Source of the DNA: a virus
IMG/VR virus record: IMGVR_UViG_3300046674_000493
Span: 1 to 39,132 of that record
Direction: 5' to 3' (one strand)
DNA: 39,132 bases
Shown here piece by piece: positions 5,766-37,226 of this stretch. Each line of letters begins with the position of its first letter. Position 1 is the first letter of the stretch. The notes below the pieces were generated by a model, which saw nothing but the letters and a program-made list of their open reading frames with translations, had not been told where the DNA came from and did no database searches. The position numbers and the translations under genes were made by a program.

Positions 5766-6800
5766 ATGGCCTGGTACCCCGGCGCCGAGCGCACGGAGCT
5801 CCAACCCGAATCCGACGGCCAGCCGGCCATCGTCCCCACCCAGCTCATCCTGCACAGCATCGCCGCCCCGTGGACGCCGCGCCGGATCTACGAGTACTGG
5901 CGCGACTCCACCAACCTGGAGTCGCACTTCGGCCTCGGGTTCGACGGCAGCCTCGGCCAGTACATCGGGACGCAGACCCGCGCGGACGCGAACATGCACG
6001 CCAACCTCCGGCCGGACGGCACCGGCGCGGTATCGGTCGAGTCGGCGTCCAACCTCCAGCACACCGACCCCTGGACGGACGCGCAGGTCGAGGCGCTGAT
6101 CCGGCTCGGCGTCTGGATGCACCAGCAGCACGGGATCCCGCTGCGGATCTGCCGCACCTGGGACGACCCCGGCTACGGCGTGCACCGGATGTTCCCGCAG
6201 TGGTCGGACGGCGGCACCGCCTGCCCCGGCGACGCGCGGGTCCGGCAGTTCCACGAGCTGGTGTTCCCGGGCATCGTCGCCCGCGCAACCGGGACCGCAG
6301 CTCCCGCTCCTACCCCCGCGCCGACCCCGGCGCCCGTCCAGGAGGACGACATGACCCCCGAGGAACTCCTCACCCACCGCGTGCCGCTCGCCACCCTGCC
6401 CGGAGGCTATGTGCCCTCCGTGGAGGAGCTCCTGAACGGCGCGAAGGCCGCGGACAGCCTGATCGAGGGGCTGCGCGCCGACCTGCCGGCCCTGCTCCTC
6501 AACGCGCCGATGCCGCAGGGCGCGGCCCTGTCCAACGGCTACGTGCCCACCGTCTGGGAGGCCATCAACGGCGCCCAGACCGCAGGCTCCCAGATCGCCG
6601 CGCTCACCGCGCAGATGACCGCACAGGGCGTCGCGAACGCGGCTGCCCTCACCGCGCTGTCCACCCTCGTCGCCCAGGTCCACGGCCTGGACGTCGCCGC
6701 GGTCGGGGCAACCGTGGAGGCCGCCGTCACGCGGGCCCTCGCCACGGGCACCGTCTCCGTCGACGTCCAGGTCCATAACACCACCACCCCGAAGGGCTGA
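5766..6800 (+). CDS. Endolysin, N-acetylmuramoyl-L-alanine amidase (Amidase_2/PGRP-type) with unassigned C-terminal repeat domain
   Basis: ATG 5766 after a CTGGAGG RBS. N-domain motifs LILHSIAAPW ... GVHRMF...TACPG fit Zn-amidase His/His/Cys ligand spacing. PAPTPAPTPAP linker, then an Ala-rich C-domain with an internal repeat. Immediately upstream of the holin. Confidence 0.85.
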   Translation: MAWYPGAERTELQPESDGQPAIVPTQLILHSIAAPWTPRRIYEYWRDSTNLESHFGLGFDGSLGQYIGTQTRADANMHANLRPDGTGAVSVESASNLQHTDPWTDAQVEALIRLGVWMHQQHGIPLRICRTWDDPGYGVHRMFPQWSDGGTACPGDARVRQFHELVFPGIVARATGTAAPAPTPAPTPAPVQEDDMTPEELLTHRVPLATLPGGYVPSVEELLNGAKAADSLIEGLRADLPALLLNAPMPQGAALSNGYVPTVWEAINGAQTAGSQIAALTAQMTAQGVANAAALTALSTLVAQVHGLDVAAVGATVEAAVTRALATGTVSVDVQVHNTTTPKG

Positions 6801-6805
6801 CCACC

Positions 6806-7027
6806 ATGTCCCGCTACCTGATTGACCTCGGCGAGCGCGTCGGCGCGACCGCCGCAGAGGCAGGCCTCGCCGTCGTCATCACCGAGGTCGGCAGCCTGCC
6901 CGCGTGGTGGGTGCCGCTGCTCATCCCGATCCTGGCCGCCGCGAAGAGCCTGTGCGCGGGCTTCGTCGGCCGCAAGGACACCGCCGCGCTGCTGCCCGCG
7001 GGCACCGACCCGGCCAGTCGCCCGTGA
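6806..7027 (+). CDS. Holin
   Basis: 73 aa directly after the endolysin. Hydrophobic segments AGLAVVITEVGSL and WWVPLLIPILAAAKSLCAGFV with a charged C-terminus. N-terminal LGERVGATAAEAG resembles r1t-type holins (from memory). Confidence 0.65.
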   Translation: MSRYLIDLGERVGATAAEAGLAVVITEVGSLPAWWVPLLIPILAAAKSLCAGFVGRKDTAALLPAGTDPASRP

Positions 7028-7311
7028 GCGGGCCGGAGACCGACCGGCCAGCGGTCTCCCTGGCCCTCGAACTGGCCGAGATCCGGAGGAGTGTGGACGT
7101 CGGATTCGCCCGTACGGACGGACAGCTCGCGCTCGTCCTCCAGCGCGTCGACCAGAGCGACGGTCAGGTCGCCGAGCTCAAGGACGAGGTGGCCAGCCTC
7201 CGGGGCGAGGTCGAGGAGCTCAAGCGGCGCCGCTTCCCCATCCCCATCGTCGGCGCCCTCACCGGCCTCGCCGCCCTGGCCGTCGCCCTCATCCCCCTGC
7301 TCACCCGCTGA
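7024..7311 (+). CDS. Lysis-cassette protein, coiled coil with C-terminal membrane anchor
   Basis: GTGA overlap with the holin stop (7024-7027). Heptad-like stretch VAELKDEVASLRGEVEELKRRR followed by FPIPIVGALTGLAALAVALIPLL. Confidence 0.5.
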   Translation: MSGPETDRPAVSLALELAEIRRSVDVGFARTDGQLALVLQRVDQSDGQVAELKDEVASLRGEVEELKRRRFPIPIVGALTGLAALAVALIPLLTR

Positions 7312-17946: not shown

Positions 17947-18165
17947 ATGCTCACCATCCCCTCAGACCTCGCCACCTGGCGTCCCAACGACGTCACCGCG
18001 TGGCTCTCCAACATCTGCGAGGACCGCCGGGTCACCGATCAGGAGTTCGCGGCGGCGCAGGCTGCCGTGCACACGGCCCTGCTCAGCCCGACCGGGCCCA
18101 CTCCGGTCGGTGCGGTCGTCGTCGAGCTGGCCCCGTTCCGCCAACGGACCGGTCGCACCGCCTGA
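17947..18165 (+). CDS. Hypothetical protein
   Basis: ATG 17947 after GAGAGG; 72 aa. Confidence 0.5.
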   Translation: MLTIPSDLATWRPNDVTAWLSNICEDRRVTDQEFAAAQAAVHTALLSPTGPTPVGAVVVELAPFRQRTGRTA

Positions 18166-18235
18166 CCCGTCCGCCGCCCGGCCACACCACGCCGACGGCA
18201 CCGCCCAACCCGCCAGCCCAGCCCGGAGGTACCCA

Positions 18236-18856
18236 GTGAACTGCCTCACCTGCGAAGAGCCGACCCAGTACGGCGCCTACCTGTGCCAGCCCTGCACCAG
18301 CAAGACGGACGACTACCTGCGGGGGCTGCCGGCGCTGTACGAAGCGCTCGGCGCGTATCTGCGGCCCTCGTCGCAGGTGTCAGTGTCGGTCGGCAGTAGC
18401 AGTCCGGCGCCGGACGCGCCGATGCCGGTGTCCGAGCCCGCCTTGGACCTGCGAGGCCCGGGCGGGATGGTGCAGGTCATGGAGGACTGGCGACAGGCGT
18501 GGTGCGAGGACGCCGGGATCCGGTGGCCGGGCGCCTTCGGGGACTACCAGGGCCGGCTGCTGCGGGTGGTCCGGGCGCTGCGCGGGCAGTTGCCGGCCAT
18601 CGCCAGCTCCTGGCCGGAGGCCGGCAGCTTCGCGGCGGAGGTCCGGCAGCTGCACGGGGCGGCCAGTTCGATCATCGCGCCGCGCGAGCGGACGGTGCGG
18701 GCTGGCACCTGCTCGGCGAAGCTGGACGACGGGTCGGTGTGCGGCGCGGTGCTCCGGGCGACGCCGGCCGTGCCGGAGATCCGGTGTGCGTGGTGCAAGA
18801 CCGCCTACCCGCCCAGCACCTGGCTGGACCTGGCAGACAGTCAGGCTGCGGCATGA
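18236..18856 (+). CDS. Zinc-finger-containing hypothetical protein
   Basis: GTG after GGAGGT. N-terminal CLTCEE..LCQPC and C-terminal CSAKLDDGSVC...CAWC cysteine pairs. Confidence 0.55.
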   Translation: MNCLTCEEPTQYGAYLCQPCTSKTDDYLRGLPALYEALGAYLRPSSQVSVSVGSSSPAPDAPMPVSEPALDLRGPGGMVQVMEDWRQAWCEDAGIRWPGAFGDYQGRLLRVVRALRGQLPAIASSWPEAGSFAAEVRQLHGAASSIIAPRERTVRAGTCSAKLDDGSVCGAVLRATPAVPEIRCAWCKTAYPPSTWLDLADSQAAA

Positions 18857-19878: not shown

Positions 19879-20153
19879 TGGCCGCCCGGCGCCTGCCCGA
19901 CTACGCGGCCGACGGCCCCCTGCACTTGCTCATGCTGCACATGAACCTGGACGTCGACGACCCGCAGGACGTCCTCCTCGCTGCGGTCTACCAGTTGGCC
20001 GCCAGGCTGGAGCGGCGCATCGCGCCGTGGGACGCCGAGGGCCTCGACCTGCTCGGCGCGCACGCCTCGTACCGGCTGACGGCCGGCTCGTGCAGCGTCC
20101 ACCTGGCCGCCCGCGTCGCCCCGTACAACGAGCTGCAGAGCAGCGTCCGGTGA
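19878..20153 (+). CDS. Hypothetical protein
   Basis: ATGA overlap; 91 aa. Confidence 0.5.
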   Translation: MAARRLPDYAADGPLHLLMLHMNLDVDDPQDVLLAAVYQLAARLERRIAPWDAEGLDLLGAHASYRLTAGSCSVHLAARVAPYNELQSSVR

Positions 20154-20545
20154 GGGCCGACCGCACCGTGACGGTGCAGACCTGGGACCAGGGGCCCGTG
20201 ACCACCCCCGAGCCGGAATGGTGCACCGGCGAGCACGAGGACGGCCTGCACCTGGTCGACCTCGTCCACGACGGACCCGACATCAGCCTGACCGTCGACA
20301 CCGAGGCCGGCCCGGTCGAGCTCCTGCACCTGCTGCTCACGCAGTACCCGTACGCCACCCGGCCCGAGGCCCGGGCGCTGTACATGGCGGTCAACCTCGA
20401 AGGCGGCTACCGCCCCTTCCGGGACGACATCGCGCTGTACCGGCTCGCCGACCAGCTCGTCGAGAACGCCGTGCAGCTGCGCGCCATCGCCCGCCAGCTC
20501 GCCGAACTCCGCATTGCCGAGGATGACTCGGCCAACAGCCAGTGA
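20150..20545 (+). CDS. Hypothetical protein (PEWCTGEH motif)
   Basis: GTGA overlap; 131 aa. The text resembles a family common in actinophages and plasmids (from memory). Confidence 0.5.
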   Translation: MRADRTVTVQTWDQGPVTTPEPEWCTGEHEDGLHLVDLVHDGPDISLTVDTEAGPVELLHLLLTQYPYATRPEARALYMAVNLEGGYRPFRDDIALYRLADQLVENAVQLRAIARQLAELRIAEDDSANSQ

Positions 20546-20666
20546 CCGGCCCGAAGTGCCCGTGTGGCTGCGGCAACCCGCCCGGCCAGCACACCCCGCC
20601 CCGCCCGTAGCTCACCCGGCGGAAGTGCCAGCGCCCCGTGCGCCGTGGTCACCGCCCCCATCACCG

Positions 20667-20703
20667 CCCGGGGCCGAGGTGCAGACACACCCTCGGCCCC
20701 GGG
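20667..20703. terminator. Hairpin followed by GGGCCACCAAC box
   Basis: Perfect 13-bp stem CCCGGGGCCGAGG / CCTCGGCCCCGGG with an 11-nt loop. Confidence 0.5.
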
Positions 20704-20730
20704 CCACCAACACACTTCAAGGGGATACCC

Positions 20731-21057
20731 ATGTCCGACCGCGCCGACTTCACCACCGGCCTTCGCCAGCTCGCCGACTGGCTCGACGCCAACCCCCAGG
20801 TCAGGCAGCCCGGCTCCGAGCGTCTCCTGATCTCGCTGTCCACCAACCCGGCCGTCGAGGAGTTCGCGGCCCAGCACGGCCTGCAGACCACGGCCGACGA
20901 CGAGGGCAACCTCTCCGCCGACCTCACCTTCGGGCCGATCACCTACCACGCCTACGGCTACGTCGACTTCGACGCGCACTGCGCCCGCAACGACGAGCGC
21001 CGCGCACGCAGCTGGGCCGCCGAGCAGGGCCTGACCCTCACCCCGCAGACCTCCTGA
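20731..21057 (+). CDS. Hypothetical protein
   Basis: ATG after CAAGGGGA; 108 aa. Confidence 0.55.
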   Translation: MSDRADFTTGLRQLADWLDANPQVRQPGSERLLISLSTNPAVEEFAAQHGLQTTADDEGNLSADLTFGPITYHAYGYVDFDAHCARNDERRARSWAAEQGLTLTPQTS

Positions 21058-21065
21058 CCCCTCCG

Positions 21066-21091
21066 CCCGGGCCGGAGGACCCCGGCCCGGG
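21066..21091. terminator. Hairpin followed by GGGCCACCAAC box
   Basis: Perfect 10-bp stem CCCGGGCCGG / CCGGCCCGGG with a 6-nt loop. Confidence 0.45.
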
Positions 21092-21116
21092 CCACCAACC
21101 CCCGGAGCACACACCC

Positions 21117-22190
21117 ATGAGCCTGCTCATGCGCAACGTCACGCGCACCCGCACTGTCCCCTTCGCCCCGTACCCCGGCGCCCCCGTCGAGCACTTCGAC
21201 GAGGAGTACATCGTCACCGTCCCCCGCGACTGGGACCGAGCCGTCCTCGTCGGCGTCGCGGTCGGAACCGGCCTCCTCCTCACCCTCGCCGTCAGCTGGT
21301 CCACCGCCAGCATCGGCGCCCTGCTCGCGCTCAGCGGAGTGATGGCCGTCATCGCGTACGGCGTCGCCGCCGTCTTCGACGCCGCATGGATCATCTGCAT
21401 GGCCCTGGAGTGGCTCGCCCGCTACGACCCCCGCAAGGCCGTCCTGCCGCGCCGCGCAGGCTACGCAGCCCTCGGCATCTCCATGGCCTCCATCGCCACC
21501 GAGGCCGTCATCATCACGGGCGGGTGGAAGGGAATCGCCGTCGGGCTCATCGGCTCCGCCGTCTCCCTCATCGCCAAGGGGATCTGGACGCTCGCCATCC
21601 GGCACACGGCCAAGCCGCTGAGCCCGATCGAGCAGCAGTATGTGGCCCGGCGACAGGCCGCCGCCGGCGCCGAGCTCGCCATGGCCGGCATCGAGCGTCA
21701 GCTGGAGCGCTCCCGCTCGCACCTCACCGCCTACCGCGAGGCCTACGCCCGGCCCGCCGTCGTGGAGGCGCCCAAGGACATCGACCGGGCAGCCGACCAC
21801 GCCCGCAGTCTGCTGCCCGGCGCCACTGATGACGAGATCACCGCCCAGCTCACCGACGCCGGGCTGGTCATGTGGCCGGTCATTCCGCCGGTCACATCGC
21901 ACCTGCGGGATGACCACCGATCTGACCACTCGGATGACCACAGTCCCGACCGCACCCCGGCCACCGTCTCGGTCGGATTCCAGCGCCGCGAGCCGGTCAC
22001 CCCGCCGGTCACCCCACCCCCCGGCCAGATGACCGGCGCCGAACTCCTGGCTGCCGCACGGCGCCTTGACCGCGAGGCCCGCAAAGGGAAGCCGTCCATC
22101 CCGGTCACCATTCAGACCCTCCAGGACGAGCTCGGCCTCTCCCGCCGCGACGCCCGGGACCTGCGCCGCAACATCGTCGGCGAGGAGTAG
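21117..22190 (+). CDS. Polytopic membrane protein with C-terminal HTH-like tail (DUF2637/Spd-like, unverified)
   Basis: ATG 21117. About five hydrophobic segments (e.g. AVLVGVAVGTGLLLTLAVSW, IGALLALSGVMAVIAYGVAAVF, IAVGLIGSAVSLIAKGIWTLAI), a helical middle part, and a C-terminal TIQTLQDELGLSRRDARDLRR. Confidence 0.65.
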   Translation: MSLLMRNVTRTRTVPFAPYPGAPVEHFDEEYIVTVPRDWDRAVLVGVAVGTGLLLTLAVSWSTASIGALLALSGVMAVIAYGVAAVFDAAWIICMALEWLARYDPRKAVLPRRAGYAALGISMASIATEAVIITGGWKGIAVGLIGSAVSLIAKGIWTLAIRHTAKPLSPIEQQYVARRQAAAGAELAMAGIERQLERSRSHLTAYREAYARPAVVEAPKDIDRAADHARSLLPGATDDEITAQLTDAGLVMWPVIPPVTSHLRDDHRSDHSDDHSPDRTPATVSVGFQRREPVTPPVTPPPGQMTGAELLAAARRLDREARKGKPSIPVTIQTLQDELGLSRRDARDLRRNIVGEE

Positions 22191-22193
22191 GCC

Positions 22194-22340
22194 GTGCTCG
22201 CCCTGCTGCTCTTCGCGCTCCCCGCCGCCATGGTCGCCGCCGGCGCCGGCCTCCTGCCGCGCCGCCCCCTCCTCGCACTCCTCCAGGCGACCCTCTGCCT
22301 CTGGGCCGCCACCCTTCTCATCATCATCACCTGGAGCTGA
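22194..22340 (+). CDS. Small membrane protein (48 aa, not in ORF track)
   Basis: GTG after GAGGAG. Translation VLALLLFALPAAMVAAGAGLL...LCLWAATLLIIITWS. Strong GC3 bias. Confidence 0.45.
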   Translation: MLALLLFALPAAMVAAGAGLLPRRPLLALLQATLCLWAATLLIIITWS

Positions 22341-22345
22341 CCGTC

Positions 22346-22507
22346 ATGAGCGTCCTGTCCAAGCTCATCGGCACCACCGTCAAGACCACCACCGGCAGCC
22401 GGACCCCGCGAGAGCGCGCCCGCCGCGCCGCCGAGATCCGCCGCATCGACAAGGGCACCGCCAACTGGCTCCGCGCCGGCGGCTGGAACCCCCGGAAGGA
22501 CCGCTGA
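22346..22507 (+). CDS. Small basic protein (53 aa, not in ORF track)
   Basis: ATG after GGAG. Translation MSVLSKLIGTTVKTTTGSRTPRERARRAAEIRRIDKGTANWLRAGGWNPRKDR. GC3 bias. Confidence 0.4.
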   Translation: MSVLSKLIGTTVKTTTGSRTPRERARRAAEIRRIDKGTANWLRAGGWNPRKDR

Positions 22508-22509
22508 CC

Positions 22510-22797
22510 ATGGCCCTCAACCTCGATCAGCTCCGACCCAGCTACAACCTCTCCGCCCTCGGGGCCAGCATCGCCCCCGCCATCTGGTGGGGCCACACCC
22601 TCACCGCGTCGACCACCTCGGGCCCCCTCGCCCCCCTCGGCCTCACCCTCGCCGCCCTGCTCGCCACCGGCGCCGCCGACCTCAAGGTCGGCCTGTGGCC
22701 CACCCGGGCCCTGCTCCTCACCCCCATCACCGCCCTGCTCGTCAGCACGCCCGCCCTGCACGCCGTCCTCAACGTCACCACCGGAGCCGCCCTGTGA
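22510..22797 (+). CDS. Membrane protein
   Basis: ATG 3 nt after the previous stop; 95 aa with about three hydrophobic segments. Confidence 0.5.
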   Translation: MALNLDQLRPSYNLSALGASIAPAIWWGHTLTASTTSGPLAPLGLTLAALLATGAADLKVGLWPTRALLLTPITALLVSTPALHAVLNVTTGAAL

Positions 22798-23354
22798 GCA
22801 CCACCACCGTCACCCTCGGCGGCGCGGCCGTCGGCCTCGTGCTCCACATCCGCGAGTTCGGCCCCGGCCTCTGGGCCATCGCCATGAAGAAGGCCGGCAA
22901 GGGAGGCCCGCCCAAGGGTGACGGCGCCGATGCCGACACCAAGAGCCGGTTCGACATCAGGGCCCACACGCCCTACCTGCTGGGCGACGGCATCGGCATG
23001 CTCGCCATCGCCGTCCCCGGAGGATTCATCGGCACCGTCGCCGGCCGGATCCTCGGCATCAGCAACAGCCTCGGCGACAGGGTGCTCTCGGCCGGGGCCG
23101 GCAGCCCCACCGTCGCCGCCACCCGGGCCGCTGCCCACACGATGGACAGCTACGGCAGCCTGGTCGTCCTGCTCCTGGTCGCCACCGTCTTCGTGCTGCG
23201 CAAGTCGATGTCGAAGCCGCAGCGCAAGCAGCTGATCACCGGGATCTGGTCCGGCTCCACGATCGGCCTGTCCGCCGGCGCGGCCGGCCTCACCGCCGCC
23301 GTCCTCATCCCCGTCGCCCAGCAGCTCGGCCACGCCATCGGCGGCCAGCTGTGA
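22794..23354 (+). CDS. Membrane protein
   Basis: GTGA overlap; 186 aa; several hydrophobic segments (GAAVGLVLHI, GIGMLAIAVPGGFIGTVAG, LVVLLLVATVFVL, IGLSAGAAGLTAAVLIPVA). Confidence 0.55.
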   Translation: MSTTTVTLGGAAVGLVLHIREFGPGLWAIAMKKAGKGGPPKGDGADADTKSRFDIRAHTPYLLGDGIGMLAIAVPGGFIGTVAGRILGISNSLGDRVLSAGAGSPTVAATRAAAHTMDSYGSLVVLLLVATVFVLRKSMSKPQRKQLITGIWSGSTIGLSAGAAGLTAAVLIPVAQQLGHAIGGQL

Positions 23355-23911
23355 GCACCGTCCAGGGCAGAGCCGCCACCCGCCTGTACAGCGGCTCTGC
23401 CCTGGTCGCCCAGCGGATCGGCGCCTGGTTCGCCCCCGAGGAGCGGCCCGTCGCCGCGACCATCCGGTGCGGAGGCGCCCTGTGGGCAGGTGCGCACTTC
23501 GGGCCCGGGCTCCTCGACCACGGGCCGCTGCTGGCCGCGGCCAGCGTGTGCTGGTGCTGGGCAGCGTGGCGGGCCAAACCGATCGAGGACAAGTCGGAGC
23601 AGGACGGCGAGGCCGAGAGCCCGCAGCACACCGTCGAGGAGATCCGCACCGGCGTCCACCAGCTCCTCCACGCGGCCGTCGCCGGCCGCAACGGCGTCCA
23701 CCTCTCCGAGCTGCTCGACACCCTCCAGCAGGCCGGGCTCCTCGGCGCCGAGGTCACCCTCCCTGAGCTGCGCCGCGCACTGGACCGCTGGGGCATCCCC
23801 ACCCGCGACTCCCTCAAGGTCGCCGGCCTCAACCGCGCCGGCGTCCACCGCGACGACCTCCCGCCCCTTCCCGAACCCCTCCCCCAACCGGTCCTGGCCG
23901 ACGCCGGGTAG
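23351..23911 (+). CDS. Membrane protein with C-terminal winged-helix-like domain
   Basis: GTGA overlap. N-terminal hydrophobic and Trp/Cys-rich segments (LLAAASVCWCWAAW). C-terminal text VHLSELLDTLQQAGLLGAEVTLPELRRALDRWGIPT. Confidence 0.55.
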   Translation: MSTVQGRAATRLYSGSALVAQRIGAWFAPEERPVAATIRCGGALWAGAHFGPGLLDHGPLLAAASVCWCWAAWRAKPIEDKSEQDGEAESPQHTVEEIRTGVHQLLHAAVAGRNGVHLSELLDTLQQAGLLGAEVTLPELRRALDRWGIPTRDSLKVAGLNRAGVHRDDLPPLPEPLPQPVLADAG

Positions 23912-23912
23912 A

Positions 23913-23991
23913 GGTAGTTCCCGCAGGTCAGACCAGAACTACCCGCCCAACTACCCGACCGACTACGCGCCCCGACTACCTCACGACTACC
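23913..23991. repeat. Iteron array: one inverted plus five direct copies of RACTACC
   Basis: GGTAGTT at 23913-23919 (inverted copy). ACTAC cores start at 23938, 23950, 23962, 23975 and 23986, with spacing 12, 12, 13 and 11 nt. Non-coding, immediately after the stop at 23911. Confidence 0.6.
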
Positions 23992-24024
23992 GTGCCCGTC
24001 CCGGGATCGCCCGGGACGGGCACG
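23991..24024. terminator. Perfect 15-bp GC-rich hairpin
   Basis: CGTGCCCGTCCCGGG-ATCG-CCCGGGACGGGCACG. Confidence 0.6.
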
Positions 24025-24030
24025 CCGCTG

Positions 24031-24057
24031 TCCACAGCCCCATCCACAGCTGTGGAT
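24031..24057. promoter_or_regulatory. Operator-like 16-bp perfect palindrome plus extra half-site
   Basis: ATCCACAGCTGTGGAT at 24042-24057 with an upstream half-site TCCACAGC at 24031-24038. Lies about 31 nt upstream of the small HTH gene. Confidence 0.5.
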
Positions 24058-24088
24058 CACGTCGGCAGCCGGTGGCATCATCGGGTGC

Positions 24089-24256
24089 ATGCGCATCGTT
24101 GACACCGCCGCCGCCGAACTGGCCACCGGGGTCCGGGCCGGGACCCTGCGCCAGTGGCTGCGCCGCCGGCGCCTCACCGCGCACGGCCACGACTACTACG
24201 GGCGGGCCCTGGTCGACCTGGACGAGATCGCCGCGCTCAAGGCCCGCGCGAAGTAG
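24089..24256 (+). CDS. Small MerR/excisionase-family HTH protein (55 aa, not in ORF track)
   Basis: Translation MRIVDTAAAELATGVRAGTLRQWLRRRRLTAHGHDYYGRALVDLDEIAALKARAK. Strong GC3 bias. Stop TAG 24254-24256. Confidence 0.55.
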   Translation: MRIVDTAAAELATGVRAGTLRQWLRRRRLTAHGHDYYGRALVDLDEIAALKARAK

Positions 24257-24337
24257 GCGCTTGCCAAGATCCGCGAGCCTTGTAACACTGAACGCGGTAG
24301 CGCATGCCCAGAGGCAGGCGACCACAGACCACCGAAA

Positions 24338-24365
24338 GCCCCGCAGCCAGCACCTGGCGCGGGGC
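24338..24365. terminator. Hairpin after the small HTH gene
   Basis: Stem GCCCCGC(A)GCCAG / CTGGCGCGGGGC (12 bp with one bulged A) and a 3-nt loop. Confidence 0.5.
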
Positions 24366-24438
24366 CTTCGTCGTGAGGCATCGTCACAACTCGGACAAGG
24401 CACCATCGCTCTGGCGGCCGCACAGTCAGAGTTCGCCC

Positions 24439-36216: not shown

Positions 36217-36696
36217 ATGTCTGACGTCATCGGCGACGGCAAGATCCGGGTGGCCTGGGTTGCTGCCATCGCCAACATCAACGCGCCGACCGCCGCCGAG
36301 ATCGCCGCGGGCATCGACGCGACGACCCGCATCACCCCCGACGGTCTGAAGACCGACCCCACCACGGCCGCCGTCGACACCGGCAGCCTCGCCTCCACGT
36401 ACGACACGGAGGAGAACGGGCGGACCAAGTTCGCCAACGAGCTGACGCTCAAGAGGGGCGACACCGGGCCCGAGGACCTGCTGTACGGCACCCTCGTCAA
36501 GGGCGCCCGCGGCTACCTTGTCGTGCGCCGCGCCCTCCCGTACGCGACCGCCTGGGCGGCCGGCCAGCAGGTCGAGGTCTACCCGACGGTGTGCGGCGAG
36601 CGCATGAACAAGGCCACCGCGCCCAACGAGGTCATGAAGTTCACCGCCCCGATGCGGGTCTACAGCCCGCCGGCCACCGCCGCCGTGGTCGCCTGA
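36217..36696 (+). CDS. Major tail protein
   Basis: ATG after CAGGAGGG; 159 aa. Position immediately upstream of the G/GT chaperone pair. Confidence 0.75.
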   Translation: MSDVIGDGKIRVAWVAAIANINAPTAAEIAAGIDATTRITPDGLKTDPTTAAVDTGSLASTYDTEENGRTKFANELTLKRGDTGPEDLLYGTLVKGARGYLVVRRALPYATAWAAGQQVEVYPTVCGERMNKATAPNEVMKFTAPMRVYSPPATAAVVA

Positions 36697-37226
36697 TGAC
36701 CGCCAAGCAGCCGCCTGTACCGGGCATCGAGGACCTCATCGCGGCCGCCACCCTGCGGGAGACCACCGTCCCGCTGTGCCTGGCCGGCCACCTGGTCGCC
36801 GAGTACGAGGACCTAGAGCGCCAGCTCTCCGACGCCGCCACGCTCGTCGGACAATCCCTCGCGGGCTCCCCGCGCGTGCCCATCGCGGAGCGGATCGAGG
36901 AACTGCGCGCCGAGATGGCCCAGCACCTCGTCAACTTCCGGTTCCGAGCGCTCGGGGGCACGGGGTGGTCCGACCTGCTCGCCGCCCACCCGGACCCCGG
37001 CCGGGCGTTCAAGCTGGCGACCTTCGTTCCGGCGGCGATCTCGGCGTGCGCGATCGGGCCCGAGATGACCCCTGAGCAGTACCTGCGCCTGGAGGCGCGC
37101 CTGTCGCACGGCCAGCGCGAGGCCCTGTTCGACGCCGTGTGGACCCTCAACACCGTGGCCCAGGCGGCCGTCCCTTTCTCGCTGCTCGCCTCCGCGACCG
37201 CCTCGGGCCGCACCGGCGAGAGCTAG
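36696..37226 (+). CDS. Tail assembly chaperone (gpG-like)
   Basis: ATG overlapping the major tail stop (TGATG). Contains the slippery heptamer near its 3' end, and the downstream -1 frame stays open to the TMP start. Confidence 0.75.
   Translation: MTAKQPPVPGIEDLIAAATLRETTVPLCLAGHLVAEYEDLERQLSDAATLVGQSLAGSPRVPIAERIEELRAEMAQHLVNFRFRALGGTGWSDLLAAHPDPGRAFKLATFVPAAISACAIGPEMTPEQYLRLEARLSHGQREALFDAVWTLNTVAQAAVPFSLLASATASGRTGES

Follow-up and report, generated by a model that had tools for sequence, protein, structure and literature searches.

How does a temperate phage come to carry, within its lytic genes, a set of membrane proteins that recalls the DNA-spreading apparatus of Streptomyces plasmids, and what might such a set do without a motor? 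The question is raised by IMG/VR virus record IMGVR_UViG_3300046674_000493, which was analyzed over its whole length of 39,132 nucleotides (nt) (here, the window, to which all positions refer). This 39-kb virus record is complete, bears terminal repeats, and has a GC content of 72%. At issue are six genes at 21117-23911, termed g1 to g6, which an earlier interpretation of the letters and open reading frames (ORFs) alone, the sequence-only reading, had likened to the spread (Spd) modules of actinomycete plasmids. We report that g1 is, on profile evidence, a relative of the plasmid spread protein SpdB, that the six genes belong to a module widespread in the Streptomycetaceae, and that this module ends in a gene for a probable membrane-anchored winged-helix protein (g6) with an array of iterons at its stop codon. 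The best explanation, to which we assign a probability of roughly 0.45, is a motor-less SpdB-class membrane complex with a g6-iteron tether that would position or move phage DNA.

A translationally coupled six-gene operon

The six genes, all of which were proposed in the sequence-only reading, are as follows (position, strand, product, and basis; GC3, GC content at third codon positions).

21117-22190, plus strand: g1, putative SpdB-family leader of 357 amino acids (aa); GC3 0.92
22194-22340, plus strand: g2, 48-aa peptide with two hydrophobic segments; GC3 0.94, transmembrane (TM) scan
22346-22507, plus strand: g3, 53-aa basic soluble peptide with 14 lysine plus arginine residues; GC3 0.96, GGAG about 10 nt upstream
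22510-22797, plus strand: g4, 95-aa membrane protein with two TM segments and one weak segment; GC3 0.96, hydrophobicity
22794-23354, plus strand: g5, 186-aa membrane protein with four hydrophobic segments; phrog_16379 at 4e-25
23351-23911, plus strand: g6, 186-aa protein with a probable TM hairpin and a winged helix; AlphaFold2 (AF2) model

All six ORFs were found at these positions and sizes, and all are coding as judged by GC3 (0.92-0.96), with a frame plot that changes frame exactly at the gene borders. The first four genes are separated by gaps of 3, 5, and 2 nt, and the GTGA start/stop overlaps noted earlier at 22794 (g4/g5) and 23351 (g5/g6) were read directly in the sequence. A GGAG ribosome-binding site lies 9 nt 5' of the ATG at 21117. 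The six genes are one translationally coupled operon.

Family-averaged and per-sequence hydrophobicity gave four TM segments for g1, two for g2, two (plus one weak) for g4, and four for g5. The membrane topology suggested earlier is borne out for these four proteins; in g6, it is reduced to two moderately hydrophobic helices, and anchoring is less certain there. A contig from a public assembly (L061), whose g1 is 82% identical, carries the same six genes, independently called, with products of 353, 50, 52, 95, 186, and 189 aa. The short genes g2 and g3 appear to be real, because both have independently called counterparts in L061 (g2, 42% identical, 50 aa; g3, 69% identical, 52 aa). A dN/dS comparison of the window with L061 carries no information, because the extreme GC3 constrains synonymous sites.

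Relationship of g1 to the plasmid spread protein SpdB

The AlphaFold model of g1 (predicted local distance difference test score [pLDDT], 80) comprises an N-terminal beta-hairpin with an invariant PRDWD motif, four TM helices (residues 39-164), a long (40-residue) helix (170-210), a disordered linker (255-300), and a C-terminal three-helix domain of the helix-turn-helix (HTH)-like type (307-354; pLDDT, 84-94). The last of these agrees with the HTH-like C-terminal tail that had been read from the sequence. By the positive-inside rule, the long helix and the HTH-like tail are predicted to face the cytoplasm. A Foldseek search with the model gave a local match of the C-terminal bundle to the winged-helix regulator PefI; matches to pentameric ligand-gated channels were insignificant, with a root mean square deviation of >12 Å, and were rejected.

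The g1 family profile, aligned with hhalign, matched the single pIJ101 SpdB sequence with a probability of 80.4% (E value, 1.3e-5) and the SpdB family alignment with a probability of 91.4% (E value, 9.1e-7) over 109 columns spanning TM2 to TM4. The two families share the motifs FD.AW/LDGGW and AKG.W/AKALW in these alignments. Precomputed Pfam assignments point the same way: PF27080 is found on 7 g1 relatives among the 120 listed, and pIJ101 SpdB and all of its close homologs carry PF27080 and PF27079. On these profile comparisons, the four-TM domain of g1 is a remote homolog of SpdB of pIJ101. The relationship does not extend to the SpdB-type C-terminal domain (the PF27079 region), since the hhalign match is confined to the TM domain; a hidden Markov model of the SpdB family matches the C-terminal domains of the L016 and L024 leaders and not that of g1, which is of the different, HTH-like type.

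The g1 protein had also been described as being of the polytopic DUF2637 type. Pfam DUF2637 (PF10935) was matched neither by g1 at an E value of ≤1 nor in a six-frame search of the whole phage, under a gathering score of 22.8 bits that positive controls passed (36.5 bits for a protein of plasmid pSCL3 and 23.8-60.8 bits for the leaders of six sister modules). Against ten DUF2637 domains, hhalign gave the g1 N-terminal domain a probability of only 7-22%. The description therefore holds for the Spd part, given the SpdB homology and the DUF2637 proteins that fill the same slot in sister modules, and fails for membership of g1 itself in Pfam DUF2637, direct homology to which is not claimed here. 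Pfam and NCBIfam searches of all six proteins returned nothing meaningful. The g1 protein falls in phrog_35187 at 1e-51 and has 220 homologs in Kitasatospora and Streptomyces; PHROGs lists the g1, g5, and g6 families as of "unknown function," so that these profiles do not recast the proteins as ordinary phage functions. Most g1 relatives are named "protein transporter Sec31" in NCBI, and a few are named "MFS transporter"; the former name looks like a propagated misannotation of an SpdB-class protein.

Conservation of the module and exchange of its leader

Of the 301 genomes of Streptomycetaceae sampled, 89 had a match to the g6 profile and 47 had a match to the g1 profile; for approximately half of the matches to the g1 N-terminal domain, a g6 match followed on the same strand, 1-4 kb downstream. 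We fetched 40 neighborhoods of 20 kb, which yielded 34 non-redundant g6 loci; genes were called by GC3, and proteins were compared by searches with our own profiles. The order leader (approximately 230-460 aa), small peptide(s), g4, g5, and g6 recurs in these 34 loci. Two g1 relatives that were located in genomes are part of prophages and occupy the position seen in the window, after replication genes and before HNH, terminase, and portal genes. Among 50 large proteins encoded downstream of g6, Pfam identified 12 portals, 6 capsids, 9 terminases, and no FtsK, and neither a TraB-like protein nor a Walker A candidate was found in the 34 loci. The six-gene cluster is the local version of a module conserved in temperate siphophages of the Streptomycetaceae. 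The suggestion that it represents an unusual hybrid trait between a phage and an actinomycete integrative and conjugative element (AICE) is not sustained, as the layout is that of a standard prophage module.

The members of the module differ in how widely they are kept. A 48- to 66-aa gene stands behind the leader, in the g2 position, in many sister modules, and g3 was not seen as a conserved member of the more distant ones. The g4 family accounts for 15 called proteins in the fetched loci, directly 5' of g5, and the g5 family is immediately upstream of g6 in most modules, which makes it the conserved partner of g6. The idea that the cluster as a whole resembles plasmid Spd genes did not hold up for g2 to g6: when the g4, g5, and g6 families were aligned with hhalign to pIJ101 SpdA, orf66, KilB, orf56, and Tra and to the middle proteins of the pSCL3 operon described below, all probabilities were ≤1.3%, and g2-g6 have no match to pIJ101 SpdA, orf66, KilB, or Tra.

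The leader itself is variable. In addition to g1-type leaders and the six leaders with DUF2637 matches, four leaders (L029, L021, L028, and L038) consist of a DUF2637-like N-terminal domain fused to a g1-type C-terminal domain; DUF2637 scores were 23.8, 21, and 15 bits in three of them, and L021 had none. An SpdB-type C-terminal domain is found on one leader and on one chromosomal DUF2637 protein. When leader type was placed on the g6 tree, approximately 15 changes were counted, with clustering no greater than that of shuffled labels, and well-supported sister pairs bear different leaders. Because leader types swap across the g6 tree in this way, g1-, DUF2637-, and SpdB-type proteins appear to fill one functional slot.

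Some relatives lie in other settings. In the 103.5-kb circular plasmid pSITFR-21c (L003/L054), positions 16.6-21.3 kb hold a g1 relative, a gene with a NERD nuclease domain, and a 423-aa g6 relative among many small hypothetical genes; this plasmid may be a phage-plasmid.

A predicted winged-helix protein and an iteron element at the g6 stop codon

The AF2 model of g6 (pLDDT, 85) has three N-terminal helices, with a probable TM hairpin that ends in a conserved W..AAWRA motif and is followed by an acidic linker. Residues 95-166 form a winged helix (pLDDT, 94-97) with helices at 95-110, 118-127, and 137-146, a strand at 115-117, and a beta-hairpin at 152-166. The topology H1-S1-H2-H3-S2-W-S3 is present, the wing carries a near-invariant GVHRDDL motif, and the winged-helix-like C-terminal domain proposed earlier for the last gene is thus canonical in the model. 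In a Foldseek search, nearly all top matches of g6 were winged-helix domains, all with E values of 0.35 or worse; phmmer of g6 against PDB sequences returned nothing. The family comprises 744 representative clusters at an E value of ≤1e-3 in 1.84 billion proteins and has no Pfam model, and tblastn with g5 and g6 against deposited phage genomes gave zero matches. Membrane anchoring of g6 is probable, and on its model the protein is probably a membrane-anchored winged-helix protein. Some g6 variants are long (380-430 aa); these are extended at the N terminus and lack a Walker A motif.

A repeat element stands at the 3' end of g6.

23906..23991, unstranded: g6-associated cis element, read from the sequence, with inverted iterons, a core, and five direct iterons
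Within 23906..23991: two inverted iterons, GGGTAG (overlapping the g6 stop codon) and AGGTAGTT
23923-23929: core GCAGGTC
23937, 23949, 23961, 23974, and 23985: five direct iterons, RACTACC/G, with 11- to 13-bp spacing

The genome contains seven copies of RACTACC, of which five fall in this 80-bp stretch. The other two, both GACTACC (18311-18317 and 18542-18548), lie inside a gene for a 248-aa zinc-ribbon protein (18110-18856); this pair may be due to chance, as three copies are expected genome-wide.

The same element layout was found 3' of g6 homologs in many loci, with one or two inverted GGTAG iterons, the core CGCAGGTCA, and four or five direct RACTACC iterons. The core lies ≤160 nt from the g6 stop codon in 17 of the 34 loci, compared with 8.6% for other genes, and arrays of at least four iterons occur in 8 of the 34, compared with a background of 2.9%. 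The composite element was counted 20 times in 995 kb of sequence, and 17 of these copies are at the 3' end of a g6 gene. No copy of it is present in pIJ101, phage SF3, one AICE, or either of two small plasmids that carry g1 relatives; g6 is missing from all five. Iteron variants (ACTACC, TCTACC, inverted CCTACR, and GTTTACC) follow g6 clades and not leader type. L061 retains the iterons with different spacers and has one unit fewer.

GC hairpins 3' of the iterons are found in sister loci as well as in the window. In four prophages (L005, L023, L030, and L032), a GC hairpin with a CTGGCAG-type loop, located approximately 20-150 nt 3' of the g6 homolog, is followed by TCCCATCCCGATCACGAGACAGGAG, which is near-identical across these unrelated prophages and runs into the ribosome-binding site of the next gene. 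The hairpin and TCCCATCCCGATCACGAGACAGGAG may constitute a conserved element, either RNA or regulatory, where early genes give way to late genes.

Alternation of g5-g6 with TraB

Twenty further loci of the g1 family were fetched that had no g6 match in a coarse search; g5 or g6 was nonetheless present in several of them. Elsewhere in this set, a Walker A protein of approximately 610-790 aa is encoded directly behind the g1 relative; three such proteins match an AICE TraB. FtsK_SpoIIIE scored above the Pfam cutoff in ORFs of approximately 700 aa directly behind g1 relatives in three loci (G100:C49, G188:C1, and G052:C11). None of the TraB-linked g1 loci has g5 or g6, and these loci gave zero matches to the phage or AICE seed proteins. 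A related arrangement is seen in an AICE-like element (integrase and TraB-like genes of 516 and 739 aa), where a DUF2637 gene is located upstream on the same strand. In the loci examined, the same leader family thus appears, from sequence comparison, to be paired with either TraB or g5-g6.

The module also has a plasmid-borne version. Plasmid pSCL3 (L008, 443121-453405) carries, in order, a divergent GntR gene, a WhiB gene, and genes for a 95-aa protein, a DUF2637 protein (514 aa), proteins of 57, 345, and 146 aa, and a g6 homolog (275 aa, full-length match, 97.9%), after which come ATCTAC iterons and a TGACCTGCG core. This operon is situated a few kilobases from the plasmid end, and three further linear plasmids of Streptomyces carry similar operons. 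FtsK_SpoIIIE was not matched anywhere in pSCL3.

Genomic setting of the module

In the Pfam gene map of the window, the minus strand encodes a tyrosine integrase, an HTH_31 regulator, and a CYTH enzyme. The rightward unit 5' of the cluster encodes a Toprim primase, a DUF3987 helicase, a sigma-70 region-2 protein, and a DUF6907 protein; 3' of the cluster are a small HTH_17 gene and genes for the terminase small subunit, an SPP1-type portal, capsid, and tail proteins. The likely large terminase is a 526-aa protein without a Pfam match. The cluster is therefore located between early and packaging genes, as had been noted, and the six genes are part of the rightward (lytic) transcription unit of the phage. 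An Amidase_2 endolysin gene (5766-6800) and two small holin-like genes (6806-7311) lie approximately 14 kb from the cluster.

A six-frame Pfam search of the 39-kb genome gave zero FtsK_SpoIIIE matches at an E value of ≤0.1, which agrees with the earlier statement that no FtsK/TraB-like ORF is present. A GntR-type TraR/KorA repressor was not among the Pfam-scanned neighbors of the cluster (sigma-like, DUF6907, and HTH_17 genes). AICEs are defined by an integrase, RepSA-type replication, and TraB, without virion genes; in this genome, virion and lysis genes are present and TraB was not found. A DNA search of the region against phages and plasmids returned only a 200-bp match, to phage SF3.

The following features flank the operon.

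21066..21099, plus strand: upstream boundary, a GC-rich hairpin with a 10-bp stem (CCCGGGCCGG/CCGGCCCGGG) and a 6-nt loop; sequence read
After the 21066..21099 hairpin, plus strand: GGGCCACCAAC box, then the GGAG ribosome-binding site, then g1; sequence read
23991..24024, plus strand: module-closing GC hairpin, terminator-like, without a T tract, with a perfect 15-bp stem (100% complementary; repeat search)

Neither a sigma-70-like promoter nor a T-tract terminator was found in 20400-24400. Upstream of the cluster, the DUF6907 gene (20150-20545) and a 108-aa gene (20731-21057) have counterparts upstream of the g1 relative in a Kitasatospora prophage (L007), the 108-aa protein being 59% identical to its counterpart, and the block conserved with this prophage may reach upstream of the six genes. 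Downstream, between the closing hairpin and the gene for the 55-aa HTH_17 protein, a palindrome (CCACAGCTGTGG) and a half-site (TCCACAGC) at 24031-24056 are kept in L061 and may be an operator for that protein.

Comparison with known systems

SpdB2 of plasmid pSVH1, an oligomeric pore former with four TM segments, has DNA, peptidoglycan, and TraB as binding partners and is required for spreading within the mycelium (PMC4447253). The g1 protein resembles SpdB of pIJ101 and SpdB2 of pSVH1 in its four-TM N-terminal domain and in having a membrane domain ahead of a cytoplasmic C-terminal one. The operon as a whole shares with spd operons a plasmid-like feature, namely a run of 3 to 7 small, diverse, translationally coupled membrane protein genes with overlapping stop/start codons; it differs from them in lacking TraB and a GntR-type TraR/KorA and in belonging to a tailed phage as the replicon. 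The proteins g2-g6 are unrelated in sequence to SpdA, orf66, KilB, Spd79, and SpdB3 as far as they were compared, which was with the pIJ101 proteins only. One likeness concerns cis sites: SpdA2 has a cis site, sps, at its own gene (PMC4170104), and g6 has iterons at its own gene. The DUF2637 proteins of actinomycete mobile elements occupy the same slot in the sister prophage modules and in the pSCL3 operon; g1 differs from them in the failed Pfam and weak profile-profile matches given above.

TraB reads the 8-bp clt repeats through a C-terminal winged helix (PMC4447253). Its likeness to g6 with the iterons comprises a membrane anchor, a C-terminal winged helix, short direct repeats, and a preceding SpdB-class leader. 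Unlike TraB, g6 lacks an ATPase domain; it is not similar in sequence to Tra of pIJ101, and in contrast to the 8-bp clt repeats, the g6 iterons are 7 bp long at a spacing of approximately 12 bp, with an extra GCAGGTC core and inverted copies. The pSCL3 operon has a polytopic leader, a small peptide, two middle proteins, a g6 homolog, and iterons with a core, as does the phage module in its own form; it differs in being plasmid-borne, in its divergent GntR and WhiB genes, and in having no phage genes nearby.

Homologs of SpdB2 in actinophages phiC31 and VWB were noted by Thoma et al. in 2015 (PMC4447253). In phiC31, we found only a weak match in gp25 (36291-37007), with E values of 0.002 for DUF2637 and 0.027 for g1 in a tiny database; gp25 is probably the "SpdB2 homologue" of the literature. 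In contrast to the window, phiC31 has no g5, g6, iteron element, or GCAGGTC core. Streptomyces plasmid-phages (pZL12/phiZL12 and others), which are mentioned in PMC4170104, are alike in joining a tailed phage with plasmid-type transfer genes in the same host group. They reportedly carry a TraB motor, in contrast to the window and to all g6-bearing loci examined. As far as our literature searches reached, the fixed leader-g4-g5-g6 synteny, the description of the g6 family as membrane-anchored winged-helix proteins, the g6 iteron/core element, the repeated leader swaps, and the either/or relationship with TraB are new.

Proposed role and alternatives

We propose that g1, g2, g4, and g5 would form an oligomeric membrane complex resembling the SpdB2-centered complex of pSVH1 and that the winged helix of g6 would bind the iterons, tying a defined site of the phage genome to that complex. 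The pair g5-g6 with its iterons would then be a motor-less counterpart of TraB with clt, with anchoring and site recognition kept and the pump missing; we liken the two because TraB replaces g5-g6 behind the same leader family elsewhere. During lytic growth or induction, the complex might, speculatively, place phage DNA at the membrane or against septal cross-walls and might help it into neighboring hyphal compartments, with energy supplied by a translocase of the host or of a resident element or by another process. The most specific form of this proposal is that naked phage DNA docks at an SpdB-type pore and is taken across hyphal cross-walls by a translocase of the host or of a resident element, with g5-g6 and the iterons in place of TraB and clt; we regard this form as doubtful.

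Several points weigh against the proposal of a motor-less spreading or positioning complex. The module lacks a motor that would power DNA translocation. The link between g1 and SpdB (91.4% at best) is a profile comparison of TM segments, which is prone to inflated scores, and g2-g6 have no detectable similarity to characterized Spd proteins among those of pIJ101, with which they were compared. The hydrophobic helices of g6 are weak for TM segments in this phage, and we infer DNA binding by g6 only from its fold and the adjoining iterons. A recognizable element is found at only about half of the g6 loci, and the loci compared for its enrichment are related, so that the P values are optimistic. 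Covariation of the g6 recognition region with the iterons was considered as a further line of evidence and was rejected: it tracks phylogeny and is inseparable from linkage, and since iteron type and g6 clade are physically linked, their covariation is not independent evidence.

A first alternative is that g6 anchors the genome to a membrane scaffold of g1-g5 for replication or concatemer handling at the membrane, with no movement between compartments. The membrane protein p16.7 of Bacillus phage phi29 has a similar role as a membrane organizer. Such a role would suit the position of the module, which in every locus is exactly where replication genes meet packaging genes, as well as the combination in g6 of a membrane anchor with a DNA-binding fold, the single unique iteron array per genome, and the lack of a motor. 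It leaves unexplained the SpdB-family leader and the pairing of the same leader family with TraB, however, and the module lies 6 kb downstream of the candidate origin region and the replication genes. Moreover, phiC31 is without g5 and g6 and deposited phages gave no tblastn match, so the module is not a general requirement. We consider this alternative unlikely.

The g6 protein might instead be a membrane-tethered regulator of the ToxR/CadC type that acts on direct repeats and switches late genes according to the state of the membrane complex. The winged-helix fold is what would be expected of such a protein; the direct repeats are spaced approximately one helical turn apart and 60-100 bp upstream of the next gene, late genes follow, and the downstream genes vary while g6 and the iterons are constant. 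However, a strong GC hairpin separates the iterons from the next gene, and the search for promoter-like sites was negative. The element, which shares bases with the stop codon of g6, would form the 3' end of the operon transcript, and pSCL3 has the element behind its g6 homolog without late phage genes nearby. A regulatory role of this kind is improbable.

Superinfection exclusion or control of DNA entry had been put forward in the sequence-only reading, and in this case the membrane complex, acting in exclusion or prophage defense, would block incoming phage or plasmid DNA. When a temperate phage encodes a membrane protein of unknown function, that protein is often an exclusion factor, and plasmid spd and tra genes are toxic or growth retarding when unregulated (PMC4447253). 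A known defense system was rejected on the absence of any PADLOC match for the six proteins at an E value of ≤0.1. The genes are also members of the lytic operon, well away from the integrase and immunity region, and are typical in codon composition, and six coupled genes with a cis site far exceed known exclusion systems. The proposal therefore fared poorly, and we give it little credence. Finally, an accessory lysis or pore function, in which the SpdB-like leader would be a holin-like pore, is suggested by the passage of T7 lysozyme through the Escherichia coli membrane in the presence of SpdB2, but it is very improbable, as the lysis cassette with its own holin-like genes is elsewhere (5766-7311) and DNA-binding domains and a cis element have no place in lysis.

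Implications for phages of mycelial hosts

Little is understood of how phages cope with a mycelium that is multinucleate and divided into compartments. A part played by SpdB-like genes in actinophages has stood as a remark in the literature since the phiC31 genome; these genes can now be placed in a defined unit with a conserved gene order, a predicted DNA-binding anchor (g6), a matching cis site, and a comparison set in which TraB stands in for g5-g6. Even if the role of the module were in replication or regulation, it is present in approximately 30% of the sampled Streptomycetaceae genomes. If the most specific form of the proposal is correct, spread inside the mycelium that does not depend on virions would be common among temperate phages of the Streptomyces family and would extend beyond rare plasmid-phages. 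Should g6 bind the iterons and should the module move or position DNA, plasmid conjugation and spreading would be linked to phage biology, and a DNA-transfer apparatus would be seen to work, or to have been repurposed, without a motor of its own.

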